DNA of 64,000 nucleotides from a virus (lineage: Duplodnaviria; Caudoviricetes), in IMG/VR virus record IMGVR_UViG_3300034053_000029, positions 128,001-192,000 of that record; one strand, given 5' to 3'. Position numbers and translations under genes: made by a program. Shown piece after piece: positions 4,850 to 42,523 of this stretch. The notes below the pieces were generated by a model. That model made no database searches, was not told the origin of the DNA, and saw nothing but the letters and a program-made list of their open reading frames with translations. Within the stretch, counting starts at the first letter, position 1, and each line of letters starts with the position of its first letter.

Positions 4850-4850
4850 G

Positions 4851-22467: not shown

Positions 22468-23019
22468 CTATTTTGCCCTAGCTACGACGTATGTATTTTT
22501 CAAATGATTTTTAACTGTATGTTTATCTTTCTTTTTTGGAACTTCATCACCATACTCATTGTCTGGTTTCTCAATTTGCTTTCTACCTTTGTGATATGTT
22601 AATTGAGTATCTGACATTTCACCAACTCTATCCATAACAGTTTTTCCACCTTCAGAATACTCATCTGAACCAATTGCTTTGATGCCTTGCTTATGAATGA
22701 GGTGATGAATGAGGTGATGCATCTTCATTGATCCATCAGACTTTTCATGTTTAGACATGGCATCTATACTTAGATGACCTTCATGTTCCTCGCCCCATAT
22801 TGAAAGATCATTCACTTTTGTCTTCTTATTCTTTGCCCAATATACGGTTTGGTCATGAATATTGGTTCCTCTATGGATAGTATGAGTATCGGTCTCACCA
22901 ATCTTCTTATGATCAAGATTCCAGTTTTCATCTTTTTTAGAGACATTCCAATCCATATTTTTTGGGATGTTTTTGTTTATGAATGCCATTTCTGAAATAT
23001 ATTCTTTAAAGGTTATCAT
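22468..23019 (-). CDS. Putative internal head protein with capsid-targeting sequence
   Basis: N-terminus MITFKEYISE resembles T4 IPIII MKTYQEFIAE; about 15 His in 183 aa. Confidence 0.7.
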   Translation of the reverse strand: MITFKEYISEMAFINKNIPKNMDWNVSKKDENWNLDHKKIGETDTHTIHRGTNIHDQTVYWAKNKKTKVNDLSIWGEEHEGHLSIDAMSKHEKSDGSMKMHHLIHHLIHKQGIKAIGSDEYSEGGKTVMDRVGEMSDTQLTYHKGRKQIEKPDNEYGDEVPKKKDKHTVKNHLKNTYVVARAK

Positions 23020-23021
23020 GA

Positions 23022-25442
23022 TTACACCCTTTGTACCGTTGTTTGTTCTGTATTAGTGGTTATTGATTGTGTTATGTCACCTGCGAATCTACCTGTCTTG
23101 GTTACAATGAGTGGTTTCGCTGGATCAAGTCCCATCATATTGTAGAGTTCAAGTAACATCGTCGCCTGAGTACCAGTCAATCCAGGGTTGCTACTAAGTG
23201 TCATAATATGAGCAAGTTCTGGAGTCAATTCGGTTCTAACTGCATCTGCCAATGCACCATAATCAACACCACCAGATGAAGCGGTATTGAGTTTATTTCC
23301 AAATGTTCCTACATCGTTGTAATCGGCGGCAACTGAATTCCAAATGTCATCAGGAATCGTATCACCACGACTACTTACCATAGCAAATTGTGCAGCAGGA
23401 TCAACAAACACTTCATTTTCTGGTGCAGAAGTTCCTGTTGGGAATGTCTTATTATCTCTGATGAAGTTATCAAACAGAATCATCGTTCTTTGAGTGTTTG
23501 GTCCTATGTTGATACCATAATCGCTATTATTCTGAATGCGTGATGCTGATACCACATTCAATCGTGTCGAGTTTGAACTTGTGCCAGTAAATTTGATACC
23601 GCATCCACGGTTGTAGTAGATGTTGCAATTATCGAAGCGAACTTCTCTTGGTGATCCTTCTCCTGCTATTGGTGCATCCGTAAATCGGACACCATCCGAT
23701 CCAAATTTCTCAATCTCACAACCGAATACTTTATGATAATCGCCACCCTTGAAATGCACACCAACACCGGTTCCTATTGCCGAACCACCACCGGTATCTG
23801 GTCCTACGATATACATATTCTCAAGTCGAGTAAATTTCGCATTGACCACGATACCATCTTCTGATCCGTTTGCCGAAGTTTTTAGGTAGATACCATTCAA
23901 TGAGCAATTGTTTGCTGTGATATTGATAACAGGATCAGCAGTAATGGTACTTGGTTGAATCATAATACCACGACCTGGTGCACGAATATGCACATCTTCT
24001 TTATTCATTACAATTCGTTCATCGAGTGGAGTTCCAACAGCACCTGGTGATAACAAGAAGATAACGTCACCACGACCAGACACCGCTTTACCGATAGCAG
24101 CAGTAATCGTTTTCAATGGAGAAGCAGGTGAATTTCCTGGTGCCAAATCCGTACCATTTATGTGATCTACATACCAACGTGATCCGAATCCTTGGTGTGA
24201 TTGACGTAGCGATTCCACATCAAGTTTTGCTTGTTCTGCAACTGCTGCTGCGAAACCTGACGCATCAACTTCCGTACCTAATGAATAATTGACAAGCGTT
24301 CCGAATCCTGTAACCGTGATCTTCCCTTTGGTGCAAGTCGAATCAACGGTAACAGTTCCACCATTCAAGTGAATCCATACTTGACCAGATTGAGTAGCAT
24401 GATTTTGATTGATGAATTTGATACGTCCATGAAATCCATCAAACGTCATATTCAGGCGAGCGCCGTTACGATCAATAATTGCCGTACCTTCGTCCGAATA
24501 GCAATCTTTGAAATATGACGCATGACCATTAGATACTGCTGATGTTTGACGAATCGTATATGTTAGTGTGGATGGAGTAAGCAAACCGCATCGTTCATAG
24601 AAACAATGTGCATTATCTAACCCATCAATAATACAATCGTGATAAATCGACTCACCACCTTGATATCCAGTGATTCTACAATGTGTCCAATGGGAATTTG
24701 TGGTGACACAACCAGAAGTCAAAGTGACTAAGGTTCTTGTAACATTCAATGTGGCACCGTCACCCTCAAATCTCAGCGCAGTAAGATTACCACCGGATGA
24801 GTCGGTCGCTGTTGATGGAACCGTGAGATTTCCACGAATGTAAAAATTATCGAAACCTCTTGTTGTAGCAATGGTTTTCGCATCTGCGATATTGTTTACT
24901 GGAACTTTGAATGTTCCGATTGGGTATGCCGTACCTGATGTTGCAACCGTGGAAACATTGCCTTGGTCAATGGTAATTTCACCATTGAATGCTGCTTGTT
25001 CGATTTCAGCAATTTGTGCCAATGAAGAATCGACAAGGGATGATACTTGCAATTCGATGGTGACGCTGTAATTACCAACAGCAGGTAGGAACGGAGAAGA
25101 ACCGGAAGGGTCTGTATAAAGGTTTCCATTGACGGTTAGTCGATGATCGCCAGAATATGGACGAATACGCCAACCATTAGTTAAGAAGTACGTCGAACCA
25201 AGAGTTTTTGTGTCACTAATTGCGTCACCGCCCACTGCTCGCATGGCAGGTAAGTACTTTACGTTATCACTAACTAGTACCCATTCTTTCCAAGCAGAAT
25301 ATATGTCTTGAACTTCAACTAAAGTGACACCAACAGAGATTTCTATGACCTTATCATTGCCATAGAAAGTAAAATCTCTAATAGTATCGAATTCGGATAT
25401 GTAACCTGCAGCAACATATCCAGTTGAGACATAATTACTCAT
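23022..25442 (-). CDS. Virion structural protein with right-handed beta-helix (pectin lyase-like) domains
   Basis: VQDIYSAWKEW, GDAIS....LG.TYFL.NGWRIRP; YVDHINGTD...G.SP..PLKTI..A; parallel beta-helix repeats. Confidence 0.75.
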   Translation of the reverse strand: MSNYVSTGYVAAGYISEFDTIRDFTFYGNDKVIEISVGVTLVEVQDIYSAWKEWVLVSDNVKYLPAMRAVGGDAISDTKTLGSTYFLTNGWRIRPYSGDHRLTVNGNLYTDPSGSSPFLPAVGNYSVTIELQVSSLVDSSLAQIAEIEQAAFNGEITIDQGNVSTVATSGTAYPIGTFKVPVNNIADAKTIATTRGFDNFYIRGNLTVPSTATDSSGGNLTALRFEGDGATLNVTRTLVTLTSGCVTTNSHWTHCRITGYQGGESIYHDCIIDGLDNAHCFYERCGLLTPSTLTYTIRQTSAVSNGHASYFKDCYSDEGTAIIDRNGARLNMTFDGFHGRIKFINQNHATQSGQVWIHLNGGTVTVDSTCTKGKITVTGFGTLVNYSLGTEVDASGFAAAVAEQAKLDVESLRQSHQGFGSRWYVDHINGTDLAPGNSPASPLKTITAAIGKAVSGRGDVIFLLSPGAVGTPLDERIVMNKEDVHIRAPGRGIMIQPSTITADPVINITANNCSLNGIYLKTSANGSEDGIVVNAKFTRLENMYIVGPDTGGGSAIGTGVGVHFKGGDYHKVFGCEIEKFGSDGVRFTDAPIAGEGSPREVRFDNCNIYYNRGCGIKFTGTSSNSTRLNVVSASRIQNNSDYGINIGPNTQRTMILFDNFIRDNKTFPTGTSAPENEVFVDPAAQFAMVSSRGDTIPDDIWNSVAADYNDVGTFGNKLNTASSGGVDYGALADAVRTELTPELAHIMTLSSNPGLTGTQATMLLELYNMMGLDPAKPLIVTKTGRFAGDITQSITTNTEQTTVQRV

Positions 25443-25452
25443 GCCTCATTCC

Positions 25453-26175
25453 TTAGACAGCATAAAATGATGGAGAAGGAGATTTGTTCTTCGTCGCTAA
25501 GTTTGAACTTTGATAATGTAAATCAATTGTTATGATGGCAGGTTCATTTATTGTACCACCTGTAATCGTTGGAATCGTCGCAACTTCGAAGTGGAACAAA
25601 AAGATTCCATCGACCTCAATCAAATTGGTATTGAGTTGATTTGGTCCAGGTGTTGATGATGTCAATTGAATTTCATCCACACGGTGATGATATTGTGGGC
25701 AATTACCAATAGTCAAGCCAGGTATTGTAATCGTAGGTGCAATCTCAGCAGAGAAGTTTGCTTGCTGATGACCTTTTGCGTAAGTGGTGAATACGTTTAT
25801 GACAAAGTTTCCACTTATGCTTGTACCATTATGTGTCCAGTGAGCATGAAGGTGCATATCTGTACCAGGGACATAATCGTGTGGTACATGGAATACGCAA
25901 TCTGAATCATCACCAACAGAATAAAACCATACACGAACTTTTCCACCACTTCTCAATTCGGAACAAGTTGGTGGACTTGCTGCTGTTGCTCTTGATAGTT
26001 CTCCGGTCAAATCATGCCAACCGAATACCGGTGTGCCTAATGAATCGACTTTGATGCCAGTGCCGCTAACACCAGTGACTAAAGGATTTACCCCATCCCT
26101 TAGATCAGTAAAATTGGTGTCTAAATCGTTATGGGTAAGTTCAGACCCTTTACCTGCTCTTGTTGTGATTGCCAT
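25453..26175 (-). CDS. Virion structural protein
   Basis: MAITTRAGKGSELTHNDLDTNFTDL N-terminus typical of fibre genes; HVPHDY.PGTD.HLH.HW jelly-roll-like core. Confidence 0.72.
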   Translation of the reverse strand: MAITTRAGKGSELTHNDLDTNFTDLRDGVNPLVTGVSGTGIKVDSLGTPVFGWHDLTGELSRATAASPPTCSELRSGGKVRVWFYSVGDDSDCVFHVPHDYVPGTDMHLHAHWTHNGTSISGNFVINVFTTYAKGHQQANFSAEIAPTITIPGLTIGNCPQYHHRVDEIQLTSSTPGPNQLNTNLIEVDGIFLFHFEVATIPTITGGTINEPAIITIDLHYQSSNLATKNKSPSPSFYAV

Positions 26176-26206
26176 TTTCTACCGTCCATAATTTACATTA
26201 TCACTA

Positions 26207-26214
26207 TATTTATT
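26207..26214 (-). promoter_or_regulatory. Late promoter AATAAATA
   Basis: Intergenic, upstream of the ATG at 26175. Confidence 0.55.
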
Positions 26215-26223
26215 CATGGTGTG

Positions 26224-26508
26224 TTAAGATGATTTCACACTCTTATGCTTCAAGATGTCCTCTTTAGGGATAAGTTTGTTCAAATCAGAAATGTATTTCT
26301 TTACAATTTTACCAGTGACAATCTTTGAGAAATCGTTTTTGTCAATATCCCATTCAATCGAAAAATCTGTTGAGTCTAATCCGTATTCACTAACATCTTG
26401 AAGATAAAATGAATAAATGTTTAGATGTTCATTTGTTGGTGTTCCCGCCTTGCATCTAAACAATGCATAACGAATTTTGCTTCTTGTCATCCCGTCTATC
26501 GCTACCAT
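26224..26508 (-). CDS. Hypothetical protein
   Basis: 94-aa ORF with GGAGGA RBS filling the gap between genes. Confidence 0.6.
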   Translation of the reverse strand: MVAIDGMTRSKIRYALFRCKAGTPTNEHLNIYSFYLQDVSEYGLDSTDFSIEWDIDKNDFSKIVTGKIVKKYISDLNKLIPKEDILKHKSVKSS

Positions 26509-26541
26509 AATAAAAATCCTCCAGAATAGGTTGTTGTATAT

Positions 26542-27363
26542 TTATTCTGTTTTTTTGATAACTCTTCCTTTTCTCCAACCTTCGGGAATTTCATCGTTTT
26601 TTGGTACAGATTTTGAATCAACTCCATTTGTTATCCAATGCTTTCCTGAGTTTGTACCAAATCTTTTTATTTTCTCTTCTGGTGTCATTTTTGCTGCATT
26701 CTCTATAAAAGTTTGTCTACTTCTTTCTCTTGCTTCTGGTGTTGTCATTGCGTCTATTCGATACTTAGTATATTCTGGATCAGCAGAAAATTCCTTTTGC
26801 TTCTCTGATCTTTGTTTTCTCCACGACTCTCTGCTAGTTATTTCTTTGTTTATCTCTGTTTGTTTTCTTCTATTTTCTTCTATTGAAAAGTATTCATTTC
26901 GTCTATTAGACTGTGCACTTCTATTCTCTTCATCGTCCCAATATTCTTGTCTGTGTTTTGTTAGTCTACTTCTAATTGCGTCATCGTCCCACATTTCTTT
27001 TGATTGTTGCGACATATGAGAAGACAAGTTTTTTCTACACATCTCGAATAAGCGACTATTACCAAATACTATCCTATTATTTTTTGTATTGGTCAGTTTC
27101 ATCATAGACAATAAGGATAGAAGCATTTTCTTTTCTGATGAAATATCATTATTTTTGAAAATTTTATATAACAAAAGGTGTGCGATATAATGTTCTTTAT
27201 GTGTCAAATTTACTACAAATTTATTTTTACCATAAATCGACTGTGGGAAGACATGGTGTGCTTCTGTTTCCCCTTGTACTTTAGTATTAAATTTCCTAGA
27301 TTCAATCAAATTAACATACCATTTTTTATACTTATTGTTAGAGAACGATTCATAACTAAACAT
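26542..27363 (-). CDS. HNH (Mob-like) homing endonuclease
   Basis: KYKKWYVNLIE, EAHHVFPQS...V.LT.KEHYIAHLLL.K; helical basic repeats; WITNG...PEGWRKGR tail. Confidence 0.88.
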   Translation of the reverse strand: MFSYESFSNNKYKKWYVNLIESRKFNTKVQGETEAHHVFPQSIYGKNKFVVNLTHKEHYIAHLLLYKIFKNNDISSEKKMLLSLLSMMKLTNTKNNRIVFGNSRLFEMCRKNLSSHMSQQSKEMWDDDAIRSRLTKHRQEYWDDEENRSAQSNRRNEYFSIEENRRKQTEINKEITSRESWRKQRSEKQKEFSADPEYTKYRIDAMTTPEARERSRQTFIENAAKMTPEEKIKRFGTNSGKHWITNGVDSKSVPKNDEIPEGWRKGRVIKKTE

Positions 27364-27433
27364 ATTAAAATTCCTTTCATCATGTTGTATCTTATATTTA
27401 TAAGAGTCACACTGTTAGAAAGGAATGTTTAAT
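27364..27433 (-). promoter_or_regulatory. RBS-sequestering hairpin enclosing a perfect late promoter TATAAATA (27395-27402)
   Basis: 15-bp inverted repeat with one bulge: 27364-27378 versus 27418-27433. Confidence 0.75.
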
Positions 27434-27442
27434 TAAATAAAA

Positions 27443-29095
27443 TTAAAGATTCGAGTAGTTTCTTTCCAACGCAGCAACCAATGACACGGCATTCGCTTTT
27501 GATTTTGCGATAGTTGTTGTCGCTTTAACGTATTGTCCTGAACTCAAACCAATACCAACTGCGGTTACATCAGCGTTAGTGTTTGCGGTGCGATCACCAC
27601 CTGCAGTTTCATTATCGTAGTCGAATGTCCAAGTCACATTTGATGCAGAAGATACATCGCCGGTAATGTCAGTGCCATCTTTGTTCTTAACCAATTTAGC
27701 ACCAGACTCACCGAAGTCATTATTTGCACCGGTCAATGTGGTGTAGAACAACCAATACTTTGCTGACGCATCATTCTTCAAATTATCACCGAAGTTAATA
27801 GTGATAGTAGCAACGTATGGGAAGGTTCTCTTGTTACCGAGTGCATCGTAAAATTCAATATCGTTGGTGTCATTTGAATTGAATGAGTCAATATAAACGC
27901 CATTCGATGTTACCAATGTATCGCCCACGAAACGCAATAGTAGGTCAGCAGTTTTACCTGTTACGGAAGCACTAGCATCAGCATCAATATCCGAATTCTG
28001 ACGAAGTTGATATTGAACCTTCTCATATACTTCAGCACGAACCGCAGCACCGGATGCAGTTGCACCAACCGTAGTGTCAGCATCAATAATAACAGTGAAT
28101 GGGTAATAAACTGTACCAACTAATCTTTCACCTTCATACGCCGCCCAATTGGTTGCATTTGCTGATGGAAGTGTACCAGTTGAGGTATAAGCAAGTATAC
28201 ACTTATACCAACGATTATTTCCTGTATCTTTTACGACATCTGCGAGTGCATATACAGTTGCAGCAGCAAAATCGCCACGGACATTATATAACTCATCGCC
28301 GGTATGACGGAGATATGTGATATTGATATTCGTGTATGGTGCTAACGTAGAAACATCACCATCAATGTGAGTAACTTTAAGGTCGGCACCGTTCGATAGT
28401 GGAAAACGATACGCTTGATACGTCATTGAAGACGCACCGATTTCCGTGTTTGCTGACTGAACATACGTCTTAGCATATTCACGAAGGAATACTTTGAAGT
28501 ATGATCGTCTATCGTAACCGTCACCAAAAGCACCGTCGCCATTTGGATCAGAGTAAATCTGAACTGCTTGGTTGACGTTATTCGTTAGTTTGATGTTAGT
28601 TGCTGCACCACCTGCAACTTGTTGGAAATATGCTTGGTCAGTATTAGCAGCAAACGATCCCAAAGTGATGATACCTGCCCACATTTCTGTAACGGCACCG
28701 GCATTAGGCGCATCGGGTTTAACCACCGACCAACCACCAGTTCTAAGCAACTCAACTGTTGTCAATGACGCTGCAGTACCAGATGTCTCGGTCTTGTCCC
28801 AGTTCCAACCATTGATCATTTCAAACTGCTCGTCCGTGATTGGACCCATTGGGAATGCGAATTTGATGAGAGTGGTGTCTGTACGCCAAATTTCTTTTAA
28901 CTTTGAGTAGACACACTTGATGGTTACACCATCATTAGTCAAAGTTCCAGCTACTTTCAATGCCAATCTTTTATTAGCATAATCGATCAAAAGTTCGTCA
29001 GTTGCTGCTGCGAATATGGAAGCAATACTTACACCAGTAGCGGCATAAGAAAGCGAATCTGGATCGATAATTGGGTTTGAACCATATACTGCCAT
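27443..29095 (-). CDS. Virion structural protein
   Basis: IIDPD.L, DGVTIKCVYSKLKE.W, FPMGPITDEQFE, FDYD.....G.RT, VTAVGIGLSSGQYV; AAGGAG RBS and late promoter. Confidence 0.75.
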   Translation of the reverse strand: MAVYGSNPIIDPDSLSYAATGVSIASIFAAATDELLIDYANKRLALKVAGTLTNDGVTIKCVYSKLKEIWRTDTTLIKFAFPMGPITDEQFEMINGWNWDKTETSGTAASLTTVELLRTGGWSVVKPDAPNAGAVTEMWAGIITLGSFAANTDQAYFQQVAGGAATNIKLTNNVNQAVQIYSDPNGDGAFGDGYDRRSYFKVFLREYAKTYVQSANTEIGASSMTYQAYRFPLSNGADLKVTHIDGDVSTLAPYTNINITYLRHTGDELYNVRGDFAAATVYALADVVKDTGNNRWYKCILAYTSTGTLPSANATNWAAYEGERLVGTVYYPFTVIIDADTTVGATASGAAVRAEVYEKVQYQLRQNSDIDADASASVTGKTADLLLRFVGDTLVTSNGVYIDSFNSNDTNDIEFYDALGNKRTFPYVATITINFGDNLKNDASAKYWLFYTTLTGANNDFGESGAKLVKNKDGTDITGDVSSASNVTWTFDYDNETAGGDRTANTNADVTAVGIGLSSGQYVKATTTIAKSKANAVSLVAALERNYSNL

Positions 29096-29121
29096 TTGTT
29101 ATCTCCTTAAAGTTCTTATTA

Positions 29122-29129
29122 TATTTATG
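29122..29129 (-). promoter_or_regulatory. Late promoter CATAAATA
   Basis: Intergenic, followed by an AAGGAG RBS. Confidence 0.65.
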
Positions 29130-29130
29130 T

Positions 29131-32100
29131 TTATGCTGGGTTAGAGTACTGACGATCAAATGTTTGTTGAACTGGAATGGTCAACGTAGTACCATCCAAC
29201 ACCTGATCTTCTAAACGAATTGGTAAATAGTTTAGATGATGAATGACGATGATAATATCAGTATTTTCGTAGTAATCATAATTCAATGTGAATGTCGTAC
29301 CTGAACTTTCCGTACCACCCAATTCAAATCCATCAGAAATACGAAACACTCTAACTTCAGAATCTGTTTGCAATCCTGTTAGAACAAGTGATCCGGATGA
29401 ATATGCGTAGTTATATGCAGTATCTGTATCGGTCTCAGTGAATAATCTAAACGAATTCAAACGACTCGTAGGTTGTGGTGCAAACACGAAACTAGTGTTT
29501 ACTGCCGTAATGGTTGAATGAATACCACCGATAGGACATGAGCCTGATGCAGTCGATAATGTCGCATTCGTCCCAGCAAGGGCATTATTAAAAGAAGTGG
29601 CGATTGCAATTTGTGTGCTACCTATTACTTCAGATACATAATTAGTCGATCCTGATGCAATACCACCAAATGTCGTTCCGATAGCAACCACGCCCGCACC
29701 AACATAGAAGTTAGCATTAGATGTCAATGTGATAAGATTATTCGTTCCGTTTATGTTTTGTGTTCCAGTAGCAGAATGTGATTTGCTTACCAGCCAAGTC
29801 GAACCAGAGCCCGATCCTGCTATGTTGCTAACGATGTAAGTTCCTGTAAGGACGTTTGTTCCAGTTAGCATCATACCTGCTGCTACCACGCCAGTTGCTT
29901 GAGTCCCCACGGTAAATGTCGTACCAGTAATGTTAGAACCAGTCGTGGTTGCAGAAGCATTCGTTGTATTTGTCATCGTGGTATTCATCGTACCAGAATA
30001 AATGGTATTTGATGTCAACCATTCACCCGTGATATTCGAAACCACTAGCGATCCTGCAACAGTAGTAACCGCTTCATCATCGACCACCACTGCTGTTGCT
30101 GTTGGACTAGTAAGCGCATTTTGTACCACCCACCCAGGCATAAACTGCCCAACTTGAGCAGTATATTTTAGTGTTGGTCTCGCAGTAATTCTGAACTTTG
30201 GTCTAACTCCAGTTGATGGTGATATTCCAGTTTCGTCGGCAAGATTATTCATTCCGATTACGCCGTTCAACTGTTTCCACGTTCCACCGTAACCTGATCC
30301 TTTATCGAGTTGATATTCGATCAATACACCTAACGAAGTTACCAAATTCAACCCAAGGTCAGTCGAATAGATATGTGGTAATCTTCTTGTGAATCCAGTC
30401 AACCCCTTGACAAAATGAGGCCATTCGATAACTACTTGGTCTCCTGCTGTAGTCAACGCTAAGTTTCCGTCATTAGTGAAGAATGGAGTTCCTGAAGTAA
30501 TCGTGTATGGTTTCGATGCCTTTGAAGAAGCGATCAATCTAATATCCAAACATCCTCTTGGTTGTGATCCATAAGTATACTCACGAAACATACCATCAAA
30601 CACAGACTGACTTGTAATTTGTGATCCAGAATATGTTGGTTCTGAACTCAAATTCCATGTTGTCCCATTCTGTAACGGATACGGATCACCACCAAAAACA
30701 CCACGAATTTGTGTATCCAATGATTGAACATACCAAGGAACTCTTGCGACTCGATTCGATCTCACATTTTGAACTTTGATACCACTTGATGCGTTTGAAG
30801 TACTTGAACTATCCATATATGCTGTAGAAACATATGGTCTTACATTAATCACATCAATATTATGTAAGTACACTGAATATCCTGGACCAGCATAATAAAC
30901 ATATCCCAATGATCCATTGATTGTGTGCGTCGAATCTTTTACACTTACATTTGTTGCACCAGAAATCGGAAATAACAAAAATCCATGATGAATTTGTTTT
31001 GTATTGATTGGTTGGTAATTCGATACATTTATATTCGCTGCAGAAGTTATAGCAGAAATAACTGGTTCGACACCAGGAGATTGGTTACTGAATAGTAAAT
31101 TCTGAACCGTTGGTGTAAATGATGGTGTAGTTCCAATATGTAAATCTGCCCAAAATTGCCATGGTGAAGTGGACAACGTAGTTTCGATACCTGCTCCGCC
31201 GTCAATGTTCCATCCATATAATCCACCAGATGAATTCAAAAATTGTTGTGGAAATTGATACACAGGGAACGTGGTGGTGGCGTTTGCAATTGGTGGTGGT
31301 ACTGCACTTGTTCTTGTTACAGTAACGTGTGCCACATTTATTGATGACCCAATCGCAGGAAGTGTTATGACAGCATTGGTTGTCGATGCGGTTGTCGTAA
31401 ATGATACTGAGAATCTCTGCCATTGATTTGTTAGGTTCTTCGTTTCTGAAGTCGTACCCAAATCCATCTTCATGGTGATGTATGTTCGATTATCAGGTAA
31501 GTTTGCCCTTGCCCAAAGAGCAAAAGTGTGAACTGTACCAACTCCAGTCTGAATCGTTTGCGTTAGAGTTCCGTTTGCTGACGTAGCAATTAATTGAGTA
31601 GTAGTTGTGGCTGGGTTTGCTGAGTTGATACCGACAAAATTATTAAGTGGGGAAAACTGACCGGTTGCGTTGGTTGCAGTTATACCAGATGCAGTCCAAG
31701 GTGCAGTTGCTAAAGTTTCATTCTGTAATGCAAGATTCAAATAACACAAAGGTGCTTGTGGAATACAAGTGATCTCAGGCAACTCAAATCCTGCGACGAA
31801 TCTTAGTGTCTGCGTGGTGAATGTATTTGTGTTAGCAATTGAAACCGTCATGGAAGTATTACTATCAACCGTAACCACTTTACAATTCATACCGACGTTT
31901 GAACCATACACAAACATACCAGGAGCTGGACTAAACCCAACGTATGTTCTTGAATTACCACGATTTTTTACATCGGCAGTCAAATTGGCAGATAAGCGAA
32001 CGGTATCGAAGTCGATAACATCAATGACGGTTGTTCCAACAGGAATACCCACACCAGTTACGATTGATCCAGGAACAATACCTGCCGCATAGAAGTTCAA

Positions 32101-35100
32101 TGATAACGAAGTAAGTCTATCGGTTCCATTCTTACCTTCAACGTCATAAGTCGCTTGCCAGTAATAGAAACCAGTTGTTGGATTAGGAACATCGGTGAAT
32201 GTCGTAGTGATCGTAGATGCTGCTGCCGTACCAGAACAGTTTGCTACCGTATTGCTACCTGATAACTTTCTTACGACATAATGATACTCGGTGTCTCTTA
32301 CCACACCTAAAGGATCATCAAAATAACATACACTGGATGCACCCGTACCTAACGTGGTTCCTATGAAAGTTGTATTATCTCTTGCGGTGAATCCCGGTGT
32401 AGTCGATCTGAATATCTGATAAGCGTGCTTGTAAATTGTAAATGTCTGACCACTTATTGTTCTTAATGCAGGTTTACTTATTTCAAATGTCGTGGAGTTT
32501 GTGATAGAAGTCACCAATGTTCCACTGGTATTCGTTCCAACAGCAGGAGTACCGAAATAAATTGCACCAGAAATTGTACCACCGTTTGTAAGTACTGCAC
32601 CTACATATAATCCGGCAGTAGACGCACAAGTTACTGTCGTACTACCTAGTGTGGTTGCCACTGAAGTAAGAGTTAGACCCGCTGTCGTATATTCTTGCGC
32701 TTGTGATAATAATGAAATACGATTCCAAACTGGATAAACATTATCATATAACGTCCAAGTAGGAGTTCCTGCAGTAATGTCGGGTGTGTAAGCGAACTTA
32801 CCTGTTTGAGTAGAGATAACACCAACGGCATTACCGTTGTTTGTCATACTAATCCAATGGGTGCGTTCTGGCAAATATTTGAGTGCACCCCATGTTATCG
32901 AAGTTGCAGTATTTGATGTGGATACGACGTAACATTGACTTGCTCTTTGTGCATTTGTTGCATCGACTTGTGGATTACCACCATTGAGTGGAGTTGTTCC
33001 TGCAAGTAATACGAATGCGGTTCCGGTATAAATGATCTTGTTGTATGACATACCTGTGGGTAATGTAGGTGCGGTTCCTGCCGTCCAAGCAACACCATCA
33101 GCAGAACACGCTGTTGGACCATTAGTTGCTGACGCAGACACGCAACAGAATGTACCGTTACCATAAGCAATTGATTGCCATAACGATGACACATTCACAC
33201 CACCTACACTCCAAGTTGCCCCATCTGTAGAATATGATGTTGCCGTACTAGCAGTACCACCACCAGAAATCGCAACGTATCTTCCTGCACTATTTGAAGT
33301 AACATCGATCCAAACTGCAGATGCAAGAGTTGTTGCTGCAAATACGATAGACCCGTTTGTGATCGTTCCTCTTGTTCCTGCCGTACTTACTGCCGTACTT
33401 CCACCAACCGCCACCCACTTGTTAGTTGCTTGTGAATTATCAAATGCGAGTGCTGACCAAATGACAGATGCAGGTTCTGTTGTTACTGTCGACCAATCTT
33501 TACCATTCGTTGAATATGCGACTCTGGTAGAAGCAACACCACCACCTTGTATTGCCATGAAGTAATTTTGAGTAGGGCACCAAATAACTTTCCACCAGCC
33601 AGTTGTTGCTGAACCAATAGGCATCATCCATGAAGTCCAAGTTGCGCCATTATCCTCTGACACTAAGCAAGTATTCACACCTATATCTGATACTAATGCC
33701 ACCCATACTCCGTTACCATAAGCAAGCGTCGGTGCCGTGCTAGTTGCCCAAGCAGGTAATGCGCCCATTCTTAGTGGTAATTGTTTCCACTTCTCAGGAG
33801 CAGACATGATACCACACATCTTCATACCTTCAACATGGGTAGAAGTATCTGCAAAATTGAAACTTTTGTATGATTTTGTCTTAAACCAATACTTTGTATC
33901 GTTTGCTAAGAATGTTCCCGTTTCTGGATTGGTAAATGCACGATAACCAGATGCCCACGAATATCCTTCATTATGCAGACCAATTTTGTGAGTTATATTT
34001 GAAACACTGACGGTGTTAACTGCAGCCGCAGTTAAAATCGTAGATAAATTGTACGCTTTGATATTATTAAATGTTTGATTTGCCCCCGCAGTAGTTGTTG
34101 ATATTACACCATTATACGGGCGAGTTCTTGGGTAACTACCAACGGCAATGACTTTCAGTCCATCCACTGTTACGTTATTTGAATATGAAATACTAAATAC
34201 GCCAGCATTTGATGAACCAACACCAGGATTAGTGCTTGATCCCGCCGCCTGATGACCACCAAATGTCAAAACGATATTCGTAAATGTGGCGCCAGAAATA
34301 TATATCCAATATATTGCAGTGAATGAAGTCCCAGCTGATTGTCCCGTACCAGTATTCATTCTATGCTCACGCATTACCCAGTTGCCATAATATGTGAATG
34401 CAATAGTTCCTGCCGTGCCGAAAGCAGCAGTAGAAACTGTAACCGATGTTGCACTATTGACTGTTGTTACCGTACAAGCATGAAGGTTCGTTCCGGTCAA
34501 CAATACACCAGGAATAATTGCTGTTGATGATGGAATGGTAACGGTTGTCGTACTATTAGTCGAACCGGTTGCACCAAGAGCAGTTGCAGCAGTCAAACAC
34601 ATATTTGATGGTGGTAATCCAAACGCAGTATTAGTTACCGTGACCTGATAACACTCGGATACGAATGGAACGTAAGCAAATCCACAATTGGTTATGGTTA
34701 ACTTTGACGCTTGAGTGTAGTTAGAATACGATTCCCCAAACAAACACTTATTGAATGTGAATACCCCTCCGAATGGCGTAGTGAAATAACACCCTGCATT
34801 ATTTGACGCAAAGTTATTCAGTTGGAAGTTTGCGGTTGATGTATCGGTCAAGAGAATATTCTGAACACGAATCTTAGCACCGTTTGGTGGAATCTTTCCA
34901 TTTGTGCCATCACCAAAGCGCAGCGTAGTTGAATATTGCGAGCAGATTGGTAATATACCAATGATAGGAATGTTTGCAAATACGTTAGCGGCAATGACAG
35001 TCGAGTTTGTCGTGAATATAGTTGCACTAATAATTTGTTCAACTACGCAAGTTGCCGCTAAACCACGACCTGTTATCCATGTACCAGGAACCAATCCTGC

Positions 35101-36609
35101 CGTCGAAGTACAAGTGATGACGTTTGTATTTGGTATGCAATTACAATTTGCTAAGTTCAAATATTGAACTGCTGCTTGATTGAAATCTTGAGTGAAACAA
35201 GTACCAGAATCTCCATCAGATACAGATTGGAATCCGTTTCTGAAATATTTGTATGTTTGGAAATCGGATGCACCAGTTACATTCGTCCAAAGTTCATAAA
35301 TGCCTGTACCACTTCCTGTTTCAACTTCCAATGTTGGTATGTAATCACCATAAACGTATGGAGAAGTAAATGTTTGTCCTGCAGCACCATTAGATGTTCC
35401 GATTTGAATATAATCACCTTCAACTTCAACTGTTGCTAATCCTGACGCAGCAATAATTGTATTGAGAGCGACAGCAGTTGCAAGTTTGTTTGTGGTGAAT
35501 CGAATAGGAGTCGTGGTGCTAGTATTCTCTATGCGTAATTTACCATTGGTGATATTGAGTGCACTTGCACCAGTTAATGCTTTCTTTTGATCCGTATTTA
35601 CGGTTAGTGTTGCACCATTATTGATCGTGAGTGTATCGCCGGTCATGACCTTTGGTTCGATGAGATACACACCCAAAATTGCAGCATTAGGACCAGTGAA
35701 TGGTGTCCATGTAATACCATCAAATGAGAATGCAGCATTGGTCGAAAGTACCGTCAATGCGATAAACATCTGGCGGCCATCCCATGCCGCTTTACCACCA
35801 CCGATCAACCAGTTAGCAGACGCAGGTAGCGTAGTAGATGTCCATGTTGCTCCGTTGTCGGTTGAATATGCAGAAGCAGTACCTGTACTTGGAACGACAA
35901 CCCATGTTCCATTTGCTCCACCCATACTTGCCCACGAAATACTTGCCCATGCTGCTGTTGATGGGAGTGCTAATGATACCGTCGACCAACTTTGTCCATT
36001 GGTGCTAGTGTAAATGTCTCTTGTACCACTTCCAATAAGAATGAATTTACCATTACGATATTTTAGATCAGTCCATGTACCGGTTGCAGGTAAAGCGACC
36101 GGATTCCATGTGGTGCCATTGTCAGTTGAATATGCACTTGAAGTAGAACCAGACGCTACTGTGACGAATGTACCATTACCAAATTCAATCAAGTTCCATG
36201 CTGCTGCTGATGGTAAAGCACCACCTGCTGCCCAATCGAGGCCTGCTCTTGGTTTGAATAATGCACAAGAAGTTGATGACGTATTGACAGTGATAAACGT
36301 ACCATTACCAAAAGCGAGACCTTTCCATGCAGCACCTGCAGGGAGTGCGGTTGCTCGGTTTGTTGCACCACCGGTCAATTCTGGAGTAGTTGTTGCTGTT
36401 ACCGTCCTATTTGCTGCAATAAAAACTGCCAATTCATCTCCGAATGCGAATCCAGTCCAAGCGACGGCAGCATCATTGATGTTACCGGAAGTTGTCCATG
36501 TGAATCCATTGACCGATGATGAAATCGTTCTTGAAGATGCAATAGGTGCGTAGAATCTGTATCCTACTTCATTTAAATTTTGATTTGTTGTTGCTACATA
36601 AGCAGTCAT
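29131..36609 (-). CDS. Giant (2492 aa) fibre/adhesin-like virion protein with two beta-propeller repeat regions
   Basis: Repeats of W..(L/I)A(F/Y)GNG.F(V/C).V and S.DNG.TW in two clusters; Thr/Gly/Ser-rich; C-terminal LTGLQ.DSEVRVFR Ig/transthyretin-like domain. Confidence 0.8.
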   Translation of the reverse strand: MTAYVATTNQNLNEVGYRFYAPIASSRTISSSVNGFTWTTSGNINDAAVAWTGFAFGDELAVFIAANRTVTATTTPELTGGATNRATALPAGAAWKGLAFGNGTFITVNTSSTSCALFKPRAGLDWAAGGALPSAAAWNLIEFGNGTFVTVASGSTSSAYSTDNGTTWNPVALPATGTWTDLKYRNGKFILIGSGTRDIYTSTNGQSWSTVSLALPSTAAWASISWASMGGANGTWVVVPSTGTASAYSTDNGATWTSTTLPASANWLIGGGKAAWDGRQMFIALTVLSTNAAFSFDGITWTPFTGPNAAILGVYLIEPKVMTGDTLTINNGATLTVNTDQKKALTGASALNITNGKLRIENTSTTTPIRFTTNKLATAVALNTIIAASGLATVEVEGDYIQIGTSNGAAGQTFTSPYVYGDYIPTLEVETGSGTGIYELWTNVTGASDFQTYKYFRNGFQSVSDGDSGTCFTQDFNQAAVQYLNLANCNCIPNTNVITCTSTAGLVPGTWITGRGLAATCVVEQIISATIFTTNSTVIAANVFANIPIIGILPICSQYSTTLRFGDGTNGKIPPNGAKIRVQNILLTDTSTANFQLNNFASNNAGCYFTTPFGGVFTFNKCLFGESYSNYTQASKLTITNCGFAYVPFVSECYQVTVTNTAFGLPPSNMCLTAATALGATGSTNSTTTVTIPSSTAIIPGVLLTGTNLHACTVTTVNSATSVTVSTAAFGTAGTIAFTYYGNWVMREHRMNTGTGQSAGTSFTAIYWIYISGATFTNIVLTFGGHQAAGSSTNPGVGSSNAGVFSISYSNNVTVDGLKVIAVGSYPRTRPYNGVISTTTAGANQTFNNIKAYNLSTILTAAAVNTVSVSNITHKIGLHNEGYSWASGYRAFTNPETGTFLANDTKYWFKTKSYKSFNFADTSTHVEGMKMCGIMSAPEKWKQLPLRMGALPAWATSTAPTLAYGNGVWVALVSDIGVNTCLVSEDNGATWTSWMMPIGSATTGWWKVIWCPTQNYFMAIQGGGVASTRVAYSTNGKDWSTVTTEPASVIWSALAFDNSQATNKWVAVGGSTAVSTAGTRGTITNGSIVFAATTLASAVWIDVTSNSAGRYVAISGGGTASTATSYSTDGATWSVGGVNVSSLWQSIAYGNGTFCCVSASATNGPTACSADGVAWTAGTAPTLPTGMSYNKIIYTGTAFVLLAGTTPLNGGNPQVDATNAQRASQCYVVSTSNTATSITWGALKYLPERTHWISMTNNGNAVGVISTQTGKFAYTPDITAGTPTWTLYDNVYPVWNRISLLSQAQEYTTAGLTLTSVATTLGSTTVTCASTAGLYVGAVLTNGGTISGAIYFGTPAVGTNTSGTLVTSITNSTTFEISKPALRTISGQTFTIYKHAYQIFRSTTPGFTARDNTTFIGTTLGTGASSVCYFDDPLGVVRDTEYHYVVRKLSGSNTVANCSGTAAASTITTTFTDVPNPTTGFYYWQATYDVEGKNGTDRLTSLSLNFYAAGIVPGSIVTGVGIPVGTTVIDVIDFDTVRLSANLTADVKNRGNSRTYVGFSPAPGMFVYGSNVGMNCKVVTVDSNTSMTVSIANTNTFTTQTLRFVAGFELPEITCIPQAPLCYLNLALQNETLATAPWTASGITATNATGQFSPLNNFVGINSANPATTTTQLIATSANGTLTQTIQTGVGTVHTFALWARANLPDNRTYITMKMDLGTTSETKNLTNQWQRFSVSFTTTASTTNAVITLPAIGSSINVAHVTVTRTSAVPPPIANATTTFPVYQFPQQFLNSSGGLYGWNIDGGAGIETTLSTSPWQFWADLHIGTTPSFTPTVQNLLFSNQSPGVEPVISAITSAANINVSNYQPINTKQIHHGFLLFPISGATNVSVKDSTHTINGSLGYVYYAGPGYSVYLHNIDVINVRPYVSTAYMDSSSTSNASSGIKVQNVRSNRVARVPWYVQSLDTQIRGVFGGDPYPLQNGTTWNLSSEPTYSGSQITSQSVFDGMFREYTYGSQPRGCLDIRLIASSKASKPYTITSGTPFFTNDGNLALTTAGDQVVIEWPHFVKGLTGFTRRLPHIYSTDLGLNLVTSLGVLIEYQLDKGSGYGGTWKQLNGVIGMNNLADETGISPSTGVRPKFRITARPTLKYTAQVGQFMPGWVVQNALTSPTATAVVVDDEAVTTVAGSLVVSNITGEWLTSNTIYSGTMNTTMTNTTNASATTTGSNITGTTFTVGTQATGVVAAGMMLTGTNVLTGTYIVSNIAGSGSGSTWLVSKSHSATGTQNINGTNNLITLTSNANFYVGAGVVAIGTTFGGIASGSTNYVSEVIGSTQIAIATSFNNALAGTNATLSTASGSCPIGGIHSTITAVNTSFVFAPQPTSRLNSFRLFTETDTDTAYNYAYSSGSLVLTGLQTDSEVRVFRISDGFELGGTESSGTTFTLNYDYYENTDIIIVIHHLNYLPIRLEDQVLDGTTLTIPVQQTFDRQYSNPA

Positions 36610-37145
36610 GCGTACACCTCAGGCCAATTATTTTCAATATCAAAATGCTCAGGATACTCCAATGCCTCACATTGCGCTTTCAGGTATTCTGCATACCCAT
36701 AAATGGTTTGTTCTTGTGTCATTTGGGCATAATATATCGATGTTGCTAATTCAGGTGTCATCTCAACCTTCTCGCCTGACATTGTTTTCCACATGATCCC
36801 TGCAGGTAAATTATTTCCTGCGATAATCAATGATAGTTGTTGCACTTTTGAATGCGTGTCTGAGTGATACCAATACTCACCGACCTTGCATCCACCAGTA
36901 TGAATCTTGGTGTCACGAATCTCTTGAATGCGCTTCCATACCGTGTCGAATATGTCTAATCGTGCGTTATTGATGGGACCAAATTCTCCGGCAGCAGCAC
37001 GGGTGAAAAGTTCTCTATTGTATTCATCGGTATCATCACTATGAGCAATGAATGGGACTTCAGAATCGTGGTCAACAAATTTAACGATCAAACTTATCGA
37101 AGTTCTTGTCTTCCATATTGGTTTTAGCGCATACTCATAGTTCAT
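36606..37145 (-). CDS. Tail fibre assembly chaperone, DUF4376-like (start reassigned to 37145)
   Basis: PFIAH.DD...Y.RELF.RA..GEFGPI; WYHSD..S..Q; I.WKT..G..V.MT. A late promoter at 37175 favours Met32 of the track ORF as the start. Confidence 0.75.
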   Translation of the reverse strand: MNYEYALKPIWKTRTSISLIVKFVDHDSEVPFIAHSDDTDEYNRELFTRAAAGEFGPINNARLDIFDTVWKRIQEIRDTKIHTGGCKVGEYWYHSDTHSKVQQLSLIIAGNNLPAGIMWKTMSGEKVEMTPELATSIYYAQMTQEQTIYGYAEYLKAQCEALEYPEHFDIENNWPEVYA

Positions 37146-37174
37146 TGTATTTCCAACACTGTTAGGTAATACTA

Positions 37175-37182
37175 TATTTATG
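37175..37182 (-). promoter_or_regulatory. Late promoter CATAAATA
   Basis: Immediately after the stop of the 37186 gene. Confidence 0.55.
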
Positions 37183-37185
37183 TCA

Positions 37186-37527
37186 TCACTTGCAATATAT
37201 CTTGCGCTCCCATCGATCCTTACAATTTTCACCGGCACATGATTTGATTTCGTTCTTCAACCACTGCAAGTTTTCAATCTTATCACACCCACCACACGCT
37301 AACGGAATAACATGATCTATCGCCCAACCGAGGCAAGAACCCATCGCTTTACCTGTTGATGGGCAATGGTATAACTTCCTGAACTCAAATAAAACCTTGT
37401 TGTCTCGTTTTATCTTACCATCAACCGTTCTTTCTGGTGCCCCACATATTCTTGAATCTGCAGCATGATATGGATCAGGATGAGCAAGTGCAAGTGTTGG
37501 GAGTATCAATAGAAATAAGAATTTCAT
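37186..37527 (-). CDS. Signal-peptide-bearing small HNH nuclease-like protein
   Basis: MKFLFLLILPTLALA signal; CPSTG...C.GWAIDHVIPLACGGCD..ENLQWL; 8 Cys. Confidence 0.72.
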   Translation of the reverse strand: MKFLFLLILPTLALAHPDPYHAADSRICGAPERTVDGKIKRDNKVLFEFRKLYHCPSTGKAMGSCLGWAIDHVIPLACGGCDKIENLQWLKNEIKSCAGENCKDRWERKIYCK

Positions 37528-37823
37528 CTTAATGTTGGTGTTGTCGTTGCTGCATGAGTTGGTGGGCGGCGATCCATACGATCAAGTAACATTTCGATCA
37601 ATCTTTCTTGTCTTGCTTGTGACGCTTGGATCGATTGTGTTCTTTCATCAACTCGGTCACTTTGCGAACGAATCTGGACAATTTCTTTCTTAACTTCCGC
37701 ATTTGATTTGACTGCCTCTTCCAAAGACTGAATCTTGTATTGTGCTTGACCCCATGCTGCACTCATTGAAGATAAAGCAACGATGAGAAACCAATGTTTT
37801 TGGAGCCATTCAACCATTTTCAT
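37524..37823 (-). CDS. Single-TM coiled-coil membrane protein (holin/spanin-like)
   Basis: WFLIVALSSMSAAWG hydrophobic segment followed by a heptad-rich region. Confidence 0.6.
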   Translation of the reverse strand: MKMVEWLQKHWFLIVALSSMSAAWGQAQYKIQSLEEAVKSNAEVKKEIVQIRSQSDRVDERTQSIQASQARQERLIEMLLDRMDRRPPTHAATTTPTLR

Positions 37824-38046
37824 GTCCCTTCACTTTAAATCCAAAACTCTTAGCCCTCTTGACAAAATCACCTAAATCTTTTGCATGGATGTTTACATTA
37901 TGAGTGCCTAGCTTTTTACCGTGTAATGGTAAACCTGCAGTTGATTGATGATGAATAATAGAAACTGGATGCATTCCATTCTCATTTGGTTCACCCACAT
38001 GAACTGTTGCCATTTCCAATATAAAATCTTTAAATGTTTTCATCAT
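37810..38046 (-). CDS. Putative internal head protein with capsid-targeting sequence
   Basis: MKTFKDFILE N-terminus; 8 His in 78 aa; GGAG RBS. Confidence 0.65.
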   Translation of the reverse strand: MMKTFKDFILEMATVHVGEPNENGMHPVSIIHHQSTAGLPLHGKKLGTHNVNIHAKDLGDFVKRAKSFGFKVKGHENG

Positions 38047-38068
38047 TTCTCCGTCGATTCAATAATAA

Positions 38069-38383
38069 TTATCCAAAATATAATATATTGTCTGAAAATC
38101 TATCTCTTTTACATTCATGTAACACTTTTGGTATCTTGTGGTTGTCAAGCAAAGTACCAATCTCCAATTTAATAACTTTATATGAATCGCATTGTATATC
38201 TATATACTTACCATTTTTCTCTTCATAAAAAGGTTTTTTGAATTTTAAAGCTAAAGCTCCATTCAGATTGCCCTCTAATGGTTCTTCATTTAATGCAGAT
38301 TGTATCTCATTCAATTCTGTGTCATTCAATTCATAGAATCGATGAATTAAATCGGTTGCAACAATTTTTAATGTAGTTATCAT
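38069..38383 (-). CDS. Hypothetical protein
   Basis: 104-aa ORF, ATGA-coupled to the upstream gene. Confidence 0.6.
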   Translation of the reverse strand: MITTLKIVATDLIHRFYELNDTELNEIQSALNEEPLEGNLNGALALKFKKPFYEEKNGKYIDIQCDSYKVIKLEIGTLLDNHKIPKVLHECKRDRFSDNILYFG

Positions 38384-38940
38384 AATGTGTCCTTGCTCAA
38401 TATAATGTGCTTATCAGAATCAATATCGTCTTCAAAATATTTATCTAGATGATCATTCAAGTTGCTATGATCCAATTTCGTCAAAGATTTACCGTCATGA
38501 TAATAAACGTGGTGCCCATCATCGAGTGCTCGTTTAGTCAATCTCTTCCACATACCATGAGCAGAATCAGATTGAGTTTTATCTGTCTTTAGTGGTAAAT
38601 TTGACTGTTTAAAATGATCATAAATCACATTAGTTGCATGATGTTTAGGTAAATCGCCATGCTTTACTACACCAGTTTGTACTTCACATGGTATAGGACT
38701 ATGAGTCTTTTTTATTGAACAGTAGTGTAATGTTTCTTGTTTGTCATGATCTAAAGTATGATATTCTGTTGTTCCTTTATATTCATCTCTATGAACTTTA
38801 ACATTATGGGAAATGTGATTTATTATCGGAGAATCTTTTATAGCAACAAACATCTTTTTGCGTTCATGCTCTTGTTCTAATTGATTAGGCACATTTAACC
38901 TAAATGATTGTTCATTTAAATATTCTCTAAATGTTTTCAA
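38380..38940 (-). CDS. Putative internal head protein (TTG start, MKTFREYLNE); possible GNAT-like fold
   Basis: TTG at 38940 overlaps the upstream TGA (TTGA); capsid-targeting-like N-terminus; TDKTQSDSAHGMWKRL; about 19 His. Confidence 0.68.
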   Translation of the reverse strand: MKTFREYLNEQSFRLNVPNQLEQEHERKKMFVAIKDSPIINHISHNVKVHRDEYKGTTEYHTLDHDKQETLHYCSIKKTHSPIPCEVQTGVVKHGDLPKHHATNVIYDHFKQSNLPLKTDKTQSDSAHGMWKRLTKRALDDGHHVYYHDGKSLTKLDHSNLNDHLDKYFEDDIDSDKHIILSKDTL

Positions 38941-39422
38941 TCTTTTTCCACCCAATTCAATTGGCATCCTTTTTTTATCAGTGCCATAACTATGTTTGCA
39001 GGTATCGGTTCAGATTCAACCACACCACCTTTTTGTAATATCGAACTAACATACTCAGCACATTGCCACTCATCATTTTTACCAACAACGACTTTCTTGA
39101 AAAATGCTCGCAATGCTTCCATTCTTGAATATTTATTACCGACCAATGAAAGTGCATACTCTTCTAAATCAGCATGCCAATATTCATCTACGGGAATCCA
39201 ATAGAACGGAACCTCTTTACTCAAAGGGAATATTCTGATCTTTGGTGATACTGCTTCGAGAATGAATACTCTTCCTGCAATAACCCAAGCGATACCCACA
39301 TGAGTATATTCAGATCGAGTGAATATTCTGACCATTTGTGCTTCTAAGTGTTCCCAACTAGTATCCGTCCAAGCAAGAACGTCACCGGATTTGATTTTTG
39401 GGCGGGCGTCAGAGTATTTCAT
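38937..39422 (-). CDS. Permuted papain-like amidase (YiiX/YebB, permuted NlpC/P60)
   Basis: IKSGDVL, SEYTHVGIA (His first), ILEA, G.KYS, WQCAEYV (Cys last). Confidence 0.82.
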   Translation of the reverse strand: MKYSDARPKIKSGDVLAWTDTSWEHLEAQMVRIFTRSEYTHVGIAWVIAGRVFILEAVSPKIRIFPLSKEVPFYWIPVDEYWHADLEEYALSLVGNKYSRMEALRAFFKKVVVGKNDEWQCAEYVSSILQKGGVVESEPIPANIVMALIKKGCQLNWVEKD

Positions 39423-39955
39423 GGTAGTCTCGTACTTTTCATATGTGATTCCGTAAACATTGGGAACATTTTATTTTCTTTCAATGTTCTCTTTATTGTA
39501 GAGGTATGCATTTCATTTCCTCCAATATTTTCAAAATCATGATTTACATCATATCCATTGTGCTTACCAATTCTATCTATTATTGGCTTTAATTTTTTAT
39601 GTATGTCTGGTCGAGCAACTATCTTAATTGTTTTATCGCTATCGATTAAATCTTTTGCATAATGTAAAGCAGTTCCAATAAATTTTGGGTTTGGTGAAGA
39701 AAGTTTTGGTGGAGCATCTCCAGAAGAATTATCACTAGCTATATGATGAAGTTCGTGATAACCTTTTCGGATAGCATGAATCAAATGTCCATTATCGCCT
39801 TCTAACTTAAATACTTTAACCGCACCAAATTTATGATCTTTATATGCTTCATCATTATTGAAATGATGTCTAACCATTTCTTCCATGTCTGGATCATGTT
39901 CCATTTTCCATGGCTTATCAAATAACTCAAACAAATACTCTTTAAAGGTGTTCAT
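39419..39955 (-). CDS. Putative internal head protein with capsid-targeting sequence
   Basis: MNTFKEYLFE N-terminus; about 15 His in 178 aa. Confidence 0.68.
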   Translation of the reverse strand: MNTFKEYLFELFDKPWKMEHDPDMEEMVRHHFNNDEAYKDHKFGAVKVFKLEGDNGHLIHAIRKGYHELHHIASDNSSGDAPPKLSSPNPKFIGTALHYAKDLIDSDKTIKIVARPDIHKKLKPIIDRIGKHNGYDVNHDFENIGGNEMHTSTIKRTLKENKMFPMFTESHMKSTRLP

Positions 39956-42515: not shown

Positions 42516-42523
42516 TATTTATC
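42516..42523 (-). promoter_or_regulatory. Late promoter GATAAATA heading the envelope operon
   Basis: Intergenic; directly preceded by the inverted repeat TCAATAACT...AGTTATTGA. Confidence 0.6.

Follow-up and report, generated by a model that had tools for sequence, protein, structure and literature searches.

Genes opening with a candidate T4-type capsid targeting sequence, and predicted GNAT-fold cargo, in an uncultured T4-superfamily phage

Four tagged genes in the window

The DNA examined here, called the window throughout, spans 64 kb (bases 128,001-192,000) of the IMG/VR record IMGVR_UViG_3300034053_000029, one contig of 210,171 bp whose G+C content is 38%. Four minus-strand open reading frames (ORFs) of the window, genes A to D, open with the pattern M-x-T-F-[KR]-[ED]-[FY]-[IL]-x-E, a ten-residue sequence (hereafter the tag) that resembles the capsid targeting sequence carried by internal proteins (IPs) of the bacteriophage T4 head. 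A sequence-only reading of the window had pointed to these N-termini, and all four were found on the minus strand where it had placed them. The genes are the following, with positions counted in the window.

Gene A: 22468-23019, minus strand; 183-aa (amino acid) precursor beginning MITFKEYISE, predicted to be cut before MAF
Gene B: 37810-38046, minus strand; 78-aa ORF beginning MMKTFKDFILE, predicted to be cut before MAT
Gene C: 38380-38940, minus strand; 186 aa from a TTG, beginning MKTFREYLNE, predicted to be cut before QSF
Gene D: 39419-39955, minus strand; 178 aa beginning MNTFKEYLFE, predicted to be cut before LFDKPW; start/stop overlap ATGA

In gene B the tag is read in frame starting at the second ATG (38043); the first ATG has a GGAG 6 nt upstream of it. 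Regarding gene C, the TTG overlaps the stop codon of the upstream gene as TTGA; the longest ORF begins at an ATG at 38967, which adds nine residues, and all five homologues found in a collection of 5.8 billion proteins begin at a Met aligned with the TTG. Cleavage behind the tag would release proteins starting with MAFINK (A), MATVHVGEPNENG (B), QSFR (C) and LFDKPWK (D), with predicted masses of 7.2-20.6 kDa, isoelectric points (pI) of 6.9-9.6 and a His content of 8.7-11.9%. The predicted mature form of A has 173 residues (20.0 kDa, pI 9.0, 8.7% His) and that of B has 67 (7.2 kDa, pI 9.6, 11.9% His), while His makes up 10.8% of C. None of the four proteins matched a Pfam or PHROG family, a tblastn comparison of A, C and D with 50,697 phage records gave no match, and no relatives of B were detected beyond the tag.

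Genes D, C and B are found within a string of genes (42477-37810) joined by 4-nt start/stop overlaps. The only gap upstream of D, C and B is the one of 81 nt that heads this string, and it contains an ATAAATA box:

Late-promoter-like box GATAAATA: 42516-42523, minus strand; in the 81-nt gap heading the string 42477-37810

Similar ATAAATAT boxes are present in other intergenic gaps of the structural module; the strict T4 late promoter TATAAATA is not enriched (3 matches versus 5 expected). Gene A is enclosed by two large genes for virion proteins, beginning 2 nt after the one of 806 aa and ending 10 nt before the one of 493 aa. From the gene order and the ATAAATA boxes we infer that A to D belong to late structural operons, and the tight coupling together with the boxes fits late expression, as the loading of a prohead requires.

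The tag peptide and its proposed processing machinery

When T-[FY]-x-[DE]-[FY]-[ILF..]-x-E was searched at the DNA level as a degenerate pattern, it matched four times in the window and not once in 100 dinucleotide-preserving shuffles. When the six frames of the complete 210,171-bp genome were scanned with the peptide pattern ..T[FY].[DE][FY][ILVM].E, five hits were obtained and each of them fell on the start codon of a minus-strand ORF of 77-491 aa. A chance origin of the motif is excluded. Position-weight scoring and a survey of N-termini yielded two further tagged genes, bringing the genome total to seven, with three genes outside the window:

Gene E: genome 98990-100465 (L001:991-2466), minus strand; 491 aa, beginning MKTYKEFIVE
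Gene F: outside the window; 188 aa, beginning MITFKTFITE
Gene G: outside the window; 159 aa, beginning MISFKQYLEE

In all seven tags, positions 4 and 7 are each F or Y, position 8 is I or L and position 10 is E. Gene F matched no Pfam or PHROG family. Gene E consists of the tag, a phrog_2319 domain (residues 19-398) carrying a CxxC...C zinc-ribbon-like stretch, and a C-terminal extension of about 90 aa; its comparison with the sequences of the Protein Data Bank (PDB) gave no match. Homologues of the phrog_2319 domain, of about 390 aa, are untagged in Ackermannviridae, Schizotequatrovirus and Angelvirus phages. Gene E thus appears as the tag joined to a domain that stands without it in other phages, which indicates, at the level of sequence, that the tag is portable. 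The Ackermannviridae and Schizotequatrovirus homologues are found close to replication genes. Beside gene E, an 86-aa ORF (L001:694-954, minus strand) begins with MLKEYILE, like the tag minus its first three residues.

The earlier reading had matched the four N-termini to the signal of T4 IPIII. In the T4 record (NC_000866), ipII and ipIII both start with MKTYQEFIAE, and PMC9026906 and PMC12991175 cite Mullaney and Black (1996) for the capsid targeting sequence that T4 IPs carry. Mutagenesis of T4 IPIII has shown that targeting depends on the aromatic residues 4 and 7, and processing on residues 8 (I/L) and 10 (E) (PMC9026906), and the protease gp21 cuts after the Glu within I/L-x-E (PMC12991175). 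Products of genes A to D have F at position 4 and Y or F at position 7, as targeting requires, and their predicted cut-site triplets are I-S-E, I-L-E, L-N-E and L-F-E, respectively. The match to the IPIII signal is therefore borne out at each of the functional positions 4, 7, 8 and 10.

Homologues of gp23, gp22, gp21, gp20, gp19, gp18 and gp17 follow one another on the minus strand of the window in the T4 order, and next to them on the gp17 side come neck, baseplate and fibre genes. Among them are the genes with which the tag would have to work, and the portal gene:

gp23-type major capsid protein: 968-2278, minus strand; identified by homology and by an aligned maturation site
gp22-type scaffold (prohead core): 2312-3553, minus strand; 414 aa, phrog_237 (E 5e-68)
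gp21-type prohead protease: 4208-4912, minus strand; phrog_207 (E 1.4e-55)
gp20 portal homologue: 5591-7252, minus strand

The protease is 35% identical to T4 gp21, whose catalytic residues are H85/S140 (PMC12991175), and it retains the invariant His of LxHP and Ser of GVSxRGLGS. A stretch of the capsid protein, L-Q-E|A, aligns with the T4 gp23 maturation site L-T-E65|A. The scaffold protein contains 15 [IL]xE sites in its 414 residues, for a rate of 0.0092 per residue in the proteome, and six mature cargo proteins together contain only 4 such sites versus 11.5 expected. This distribution, rich in the scaffold and poor in the cargo, fits a single protease specificity.

The capsid protein shares 60% identity with its counterpart in Pelagibacter phage HTVC008M and 41% with T4 gp23, and no near-identical DNA for the region was found among the 50,697 phage records. 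Because of these capsid identities, the T4 gene order and the lack of a near-identical record, the source is placed, by its sequence, as an uncultured and distant member of the T4 superfamily (a myovirus).

Here again in favour of cleavage behind the tag, the boundary between leader and body in homologues coincides with the predicted cut. The tag is retained in the homologues of A (2), C (5) and D (5), whose bodies have diverged to 37-58% identity. A profile search of 1.84 billion representatives extended the C family to about 100 clusters (at 50% identity), of which many members open with the canonical tag and others with unrelated leaders of 12-25 residues. Nearly all leaders of the family end in [ILM]-x-E right before the conserved M-A-x-N-I-G, and a few members start at the Met of this motif. 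In evolutionary terms, then, the leader stops at the predicted cut, and it appears to behave as a module.

Several observations weigh against the tag as a packaging signal. The start of gene C at the TTG is itself inferred. The exact tag pattern is absent in HTVC008M, Melnitz and S-SKS1, the closest cultured phages by capsid protein, and in Aeromonas phage PX29, and so the tag is not universal in the clade. Moreover, T4 gene 61.1 (NC_000866 18966-19130; L013:667-831, minus strand), which encodes a hypothetical protein of 54 aa that carries no virion-protein annotation in the T4 record, starts with MKTFKEFIKE. As this gene carries the full tag, the motif alone may not prove packaging; 61.1 may encode a T4 internal protein that has gone unrecognised, or it may be a warning about inference from the motif only. 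The shared N-terminus could then act in translation initiation or in the mRNA, could serve as a linker for recombination, or could simply be an amphipathic first helix of a common kind, and conserved tag DNA could promote the exchange of cassettes. However, tag pairs that share a residue use the same codon in 46% of cases, about what the codon usage of the genome predicts. Codon choice is thus random, selection acts on the tag peptide and not on its codons, and an RNA or DNA element is unlikely. In addition, the motif was never found off ORF starts in the six-frame scan of the genome, the tag ends in a protease site that coincides with the leader boundary of the C family, and the tagged loci listed from other contigs are mostly on T4-like contigs. 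We consider it very improbable that the shared N-terminus serves something other than packaging.

Taken together, the tag residues, the protease, the scaffold and the capsid maturation site give support at the level of sequence to the capsid-targeting role that the sequence-only reading had proposed, and this role is the best-supported interpretation, which we regard as probable. It is likewise probable that genes A to D and the three other tagged genes encode precursors of internal head proteins. The first ten residues would be a T4-type capsid targeting sequence that docks the precursor on the gp22 scaffold core during prohead assembly, and the gp21-type protease would then cut after Glu10 at [IL]-x-E. 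Mature proteins, of 7-21 kDa for A to D, would stay inside the head beside the DNA and pass into the host at infection, ahead of any phage gene expression. All of these steps are drawn by analogy with T4.

Two genes without the tag are interleaved with B, C and D:

38069-38383, minus strand: untagged 104-aa gene between B and C; no family match
38937-39422, minus strand: untagged 161-aa gene between C and D; phrog_1128 (E 1.3e-11)

The 161-aa gene is translationally coupled to both C and D, and a homologue with 56% identity is found on contig L085. The same late operon contains, on the minus strand, two genes whose products look exported, one of 113 aa (37186-37527) and one of 356 aa (40296-41366). 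Both proteins have a start like that of a signal peptide, and the 113-aa protein also matches HNH weakly. A Thr/Ser/Gly/Asn-rich ORF of 2,492 aa (29131-36609, minus strand) presumably encodes a giant fibre or adhesin, and a DUF4376 fibre-like gene (36606-37238) lies upstream of it. Homing-endonuclease-like genes break up the structural module at 3550-4125, 7871-8752, 26542-27363 (minus strand) and 43152-43760 (plus strand), one of them separating the scaffold and protease genes.

Predicted folds of the cargo proteins

The four genes had been described as unrelated, and pairwise BLAST indeed finds nothing among them. This description does not hold at greater depth, where A and C are remote homologues by hhalign and where C and D both model as GNAT-like. 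In the comparison of A with C, hhalign gave 93.7% over 35 columns, and with a 76-sequence profile 84% (E 7.6e-6) over 129 columns. By contrast, only the tag aligned when D was compared with the A and C families, or B, F and G with A, C and D, and therefore no sequence homology is claimed for D, B, F and G. The resemblance of gene B to T4 IPI and IPII, judged from its sequence, is one of size and charge only; it would be a small basic cargo protein.

The AlphaFold model of C has a predicted local distance difference test score (pLDDT) of 84.8 and a predicted template modelling score (pTM) of 0.76. Its top Foldseek matches are GNAT or HAT domains, and VIA-align gave a best Z of 9.1 (121 aa, root-mean-square deviation (rmsd) 3.3). 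When 48,161 chains were searched independently of Foldseek, the best 50 were all acetyltransferases, with Z from 8.8 (121 aa, rmsd 3.4) to 6.5. Compared with the ESM Atlas, the C model gave template modelling (TM) scores of 0.61-0.66 to viral clusters in which 18-48% of the members carry PF00583. Regarding D, the model (pLDDT 75.8) gave a best Z of 7.0 (119 aa, rmsd 4.0), acetyltransferases accounted for 48 of its 50 best chains, and its Atlas model gave TM scores of 0.45-0.49 to clusters whose members, with few or no exceptions, have Pfam GNAT domains. Aligned by eye, the D family conserves [KR]-F-[IV]-G-T-[AMS] where the helix that follows strand 4 begins, and the stretch K-F-I-G-T-A of D occupies the position of the acetyl-CoA loop (consensus Q/R-x-x-G-x-G/A). 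The C family has an invariant DGHHVYYHDG motif.

Other results count against a GNAT assignment. A and C are without a clear Q/R-x-x-G-x-G/A loop, and so they may be binders rather than enzymes. Neither A nor C has a Pfam hit that would give a GNAT match in sequence; a single one of the 76 C-family members matched Acetyltransf_1, at an E of 0.089 that is noise; and the 76-sequence C-family profile found nothing among the PDB sequences. The Z scores to GNAT proteins are in a range that the tool itself calls middling. Since membership fails at the sequence level, what we propose concerns the fold and not an activity. Within these bounds C is read, from its model, as a GNAT-fold protein and A as another through its hhalign link to C alone, so that both would form one diverged His-rich family, and D is probably a GNAT-fold protein of a separate kind. 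On this reading, A, C and D look like diverged acetyltransferases.

Tagged proteins in related phages and the possible role of the cargo

IMG/VR was scanned with the pattern M-[IKN..]-T-[FY]-K-[ED]-[FY]-[IL..]-x-E, which gave at least 125 matches at 120 loci or more, nearly all at ORF starts. Homologues of the T4-like core genes of the phage are carried by at least 100 of the listed loci, and the tagged proteins form at least 49 BLAST clusters among the matches listed. Domain calls were made on ten tagged representatives. A tagged family present in at least 19 loci is the SAM (S-adenosylmethionine) lyase PF23780; the other representatives with a call include an ART-PolyVal PF18760 ADP-ribosyltransferase (ART), a DUF6267 protein with a KxDG motif seen by eye, one protein like HAD/polynucleotide kinase (PNK) and one weakly cytidylyltransferase-like protein. 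The commonest tagged family among the matches listed, of about 190 aa, occurs at no fewer than 39 loci (L046, L111, L064 and 36 others) and starts with MKTFKEYLxESKKxYxFKIKVAGELPE. It has no Pfam or PHROG match and one weak cultured-phage hit only, and its loci also hold the sheath and terminase genes of distant T4-like contigs. In cyanophage S-N03, a SAM-lyase homologue has a diverged leader.

Contig L026 is a close relative, with a homologue of D (52% identical) and a homologue of the 99-aa gene at 37524-37823. At the syntenic place it carries at least seven tagged genes in tandem, of which only D is shared. Their order (L026:1041-6794) is a 437-aa DUF6267 ligase-like gene with a GTG start, genes of 154, 94, 204 and 67 aa, the D homologue, and a gene for a 713-aa protein. 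The 204-aa tagged protein is the HAD/PNK-like one, and the D homologue and the 713-aa protein have a one-residue-longer variant of the tag, MTKKFKEYL.

These variable loci bear on what the cargo might do. The tagged proteins could be packaged and yet act inside the particle, as core, scaffold-accessory or DNA-condensing proteins, a role proposed for T4 IPIII. In agreement with this, A sits within a string of virion-protein genes, the mature forms of A, B and D are predicted to be basic (pI 8.1-9.6) and all four are His-rich; T4 IPs are basic and bind DNA at low salt, and the loss of IPIII disturbs head assembly (PMC9026906). However, the tagged set turns over fast between close relatives, as shown by the sharing of D alone with L026, and this turnover is easier to reconcile with conflict genes than with structural parts. 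In related phages the tag is also found at the head of enzymes, and C and D model as enzyme-type folds. A role confined to the particle thus seems improbable to us.

The sequence-only reading had gone further and taken A to D as strong candidates for anti-defence proteins. In the specific form of this idea they would be stoichiometric inhibitors of host defence nucleases, on the model of the packaged T4 protein IPI*, which blocks GmrSD (PMC3012670). Beyond this precedent, the tagged SAM lyases on related contigs represent a classic anti-restriction activity and the loci are hypervariable. Against it, nothing ties A to D to any defence system, they have no similarity to IPI and match no family or known inhibitor, and three of the four are predicted to have an acetyltransferase fold, which suggests catalysis, or RNA polymerase or the translation apparatus as a target, equally well (PMC7824862). 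The claim in its strong form therefore falls back on precedent, and inhibition of defence nucleases is a possible but rather unlikely role. If the proteins are delivered as proposed, their likeliest job would be the early modification or neutralisation of some host component.

The proposed mechanism is the known one of T4, and tagged cargo is already known from T-even phages. As in T4 IPI, IPII and IPIII, the tag has ten residues with a K/I-T start, two aromatics (positions 4 and 7), I/L as residue 8 and E as residue 10, the protease and the scaffold are encoded in the same genome, and the cargo proteins are dissimilar apart from the tag, small, basic and variable between relatives. By contrast, the similarity to the T4 IPs ends at the tag, the capsid protein and the protease of the phage share only 41% and 35% identity with those of T4, its seven tagged genes are scattered across the genome instead of being found at two loci, and three of its cargo proteins have a predicted GNAT-like fold.

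In T4, the ADP-ribosyltransferase Alt is packaged, processed by gp21 and injected (PMC9026906). In a similar manner, related contigs put the tag on ART-PolyVal, which would make a head-borne enzyme delivered with the DNA; unlike this case, none of A to D is an ADP-ribosyltransferase, and Alt has a different propeptide. GNAT domains are present in injected polyvalent proteins, and phage phiKMV encodes the Rac acetyltransferase (PMC7824862). These are acetyltransferase-fold phage proteins, like those predicted here, and they act early on host targets; the proteins described here differ from the polyvalent GNATs as small single-domain proteins with a putatively cleavable tag, no Pfam GNAT match and a fold that is predicted. 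T-even phages have variable ip loci whose only conserved part is the tag, according to PMC3012670 citing Repoila et al. (1994). The relatives compared here similarly carry different tagged genes at one syntenic place (B to D versus L026), with the differences that they are uncultured T4-like phages and that their arrays reach seven genes or more. Particular to this genome are the His-rich A/C family with its predicted GNAT fold and the leader boundary that coincides with the protease site.

Beyond this genome, we suggest tentatively, and with somewhat less than an even chance, that the tag is a portable address label kept nearly letter for letter across distant aquatic T4-superfamily phages, and that the A/C family, with about 100 clusters and no Pfam family, is a new class of injected acetyltransferase-type effectors beside tagged SAM lyases, ADP-ribosyltransferases and ligase-like and phosphatase-like enzymes. 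Were this true, the injected repertoire of uncultured phages could be read from sequence alone. Proteins co-injected with the DNA act before phage gene expression, at the time when restriction and other first-line defences strike, T4 IPI* being the textbook case. If the tag reliably marks packaged cargo, candidates for early effectors could be listed for phages that were never cultured, and the present genome would add an uncharacterised family with a predicted GNAT fold to that list. The tag is also a handle for loading foreign proteins into T4 heads for delivery, and the variation that it appears to tolerate (I, K or N as residue 2, F or Y as residues 4 and 7, I or L as residue 8) may be of practical use for this purpose.

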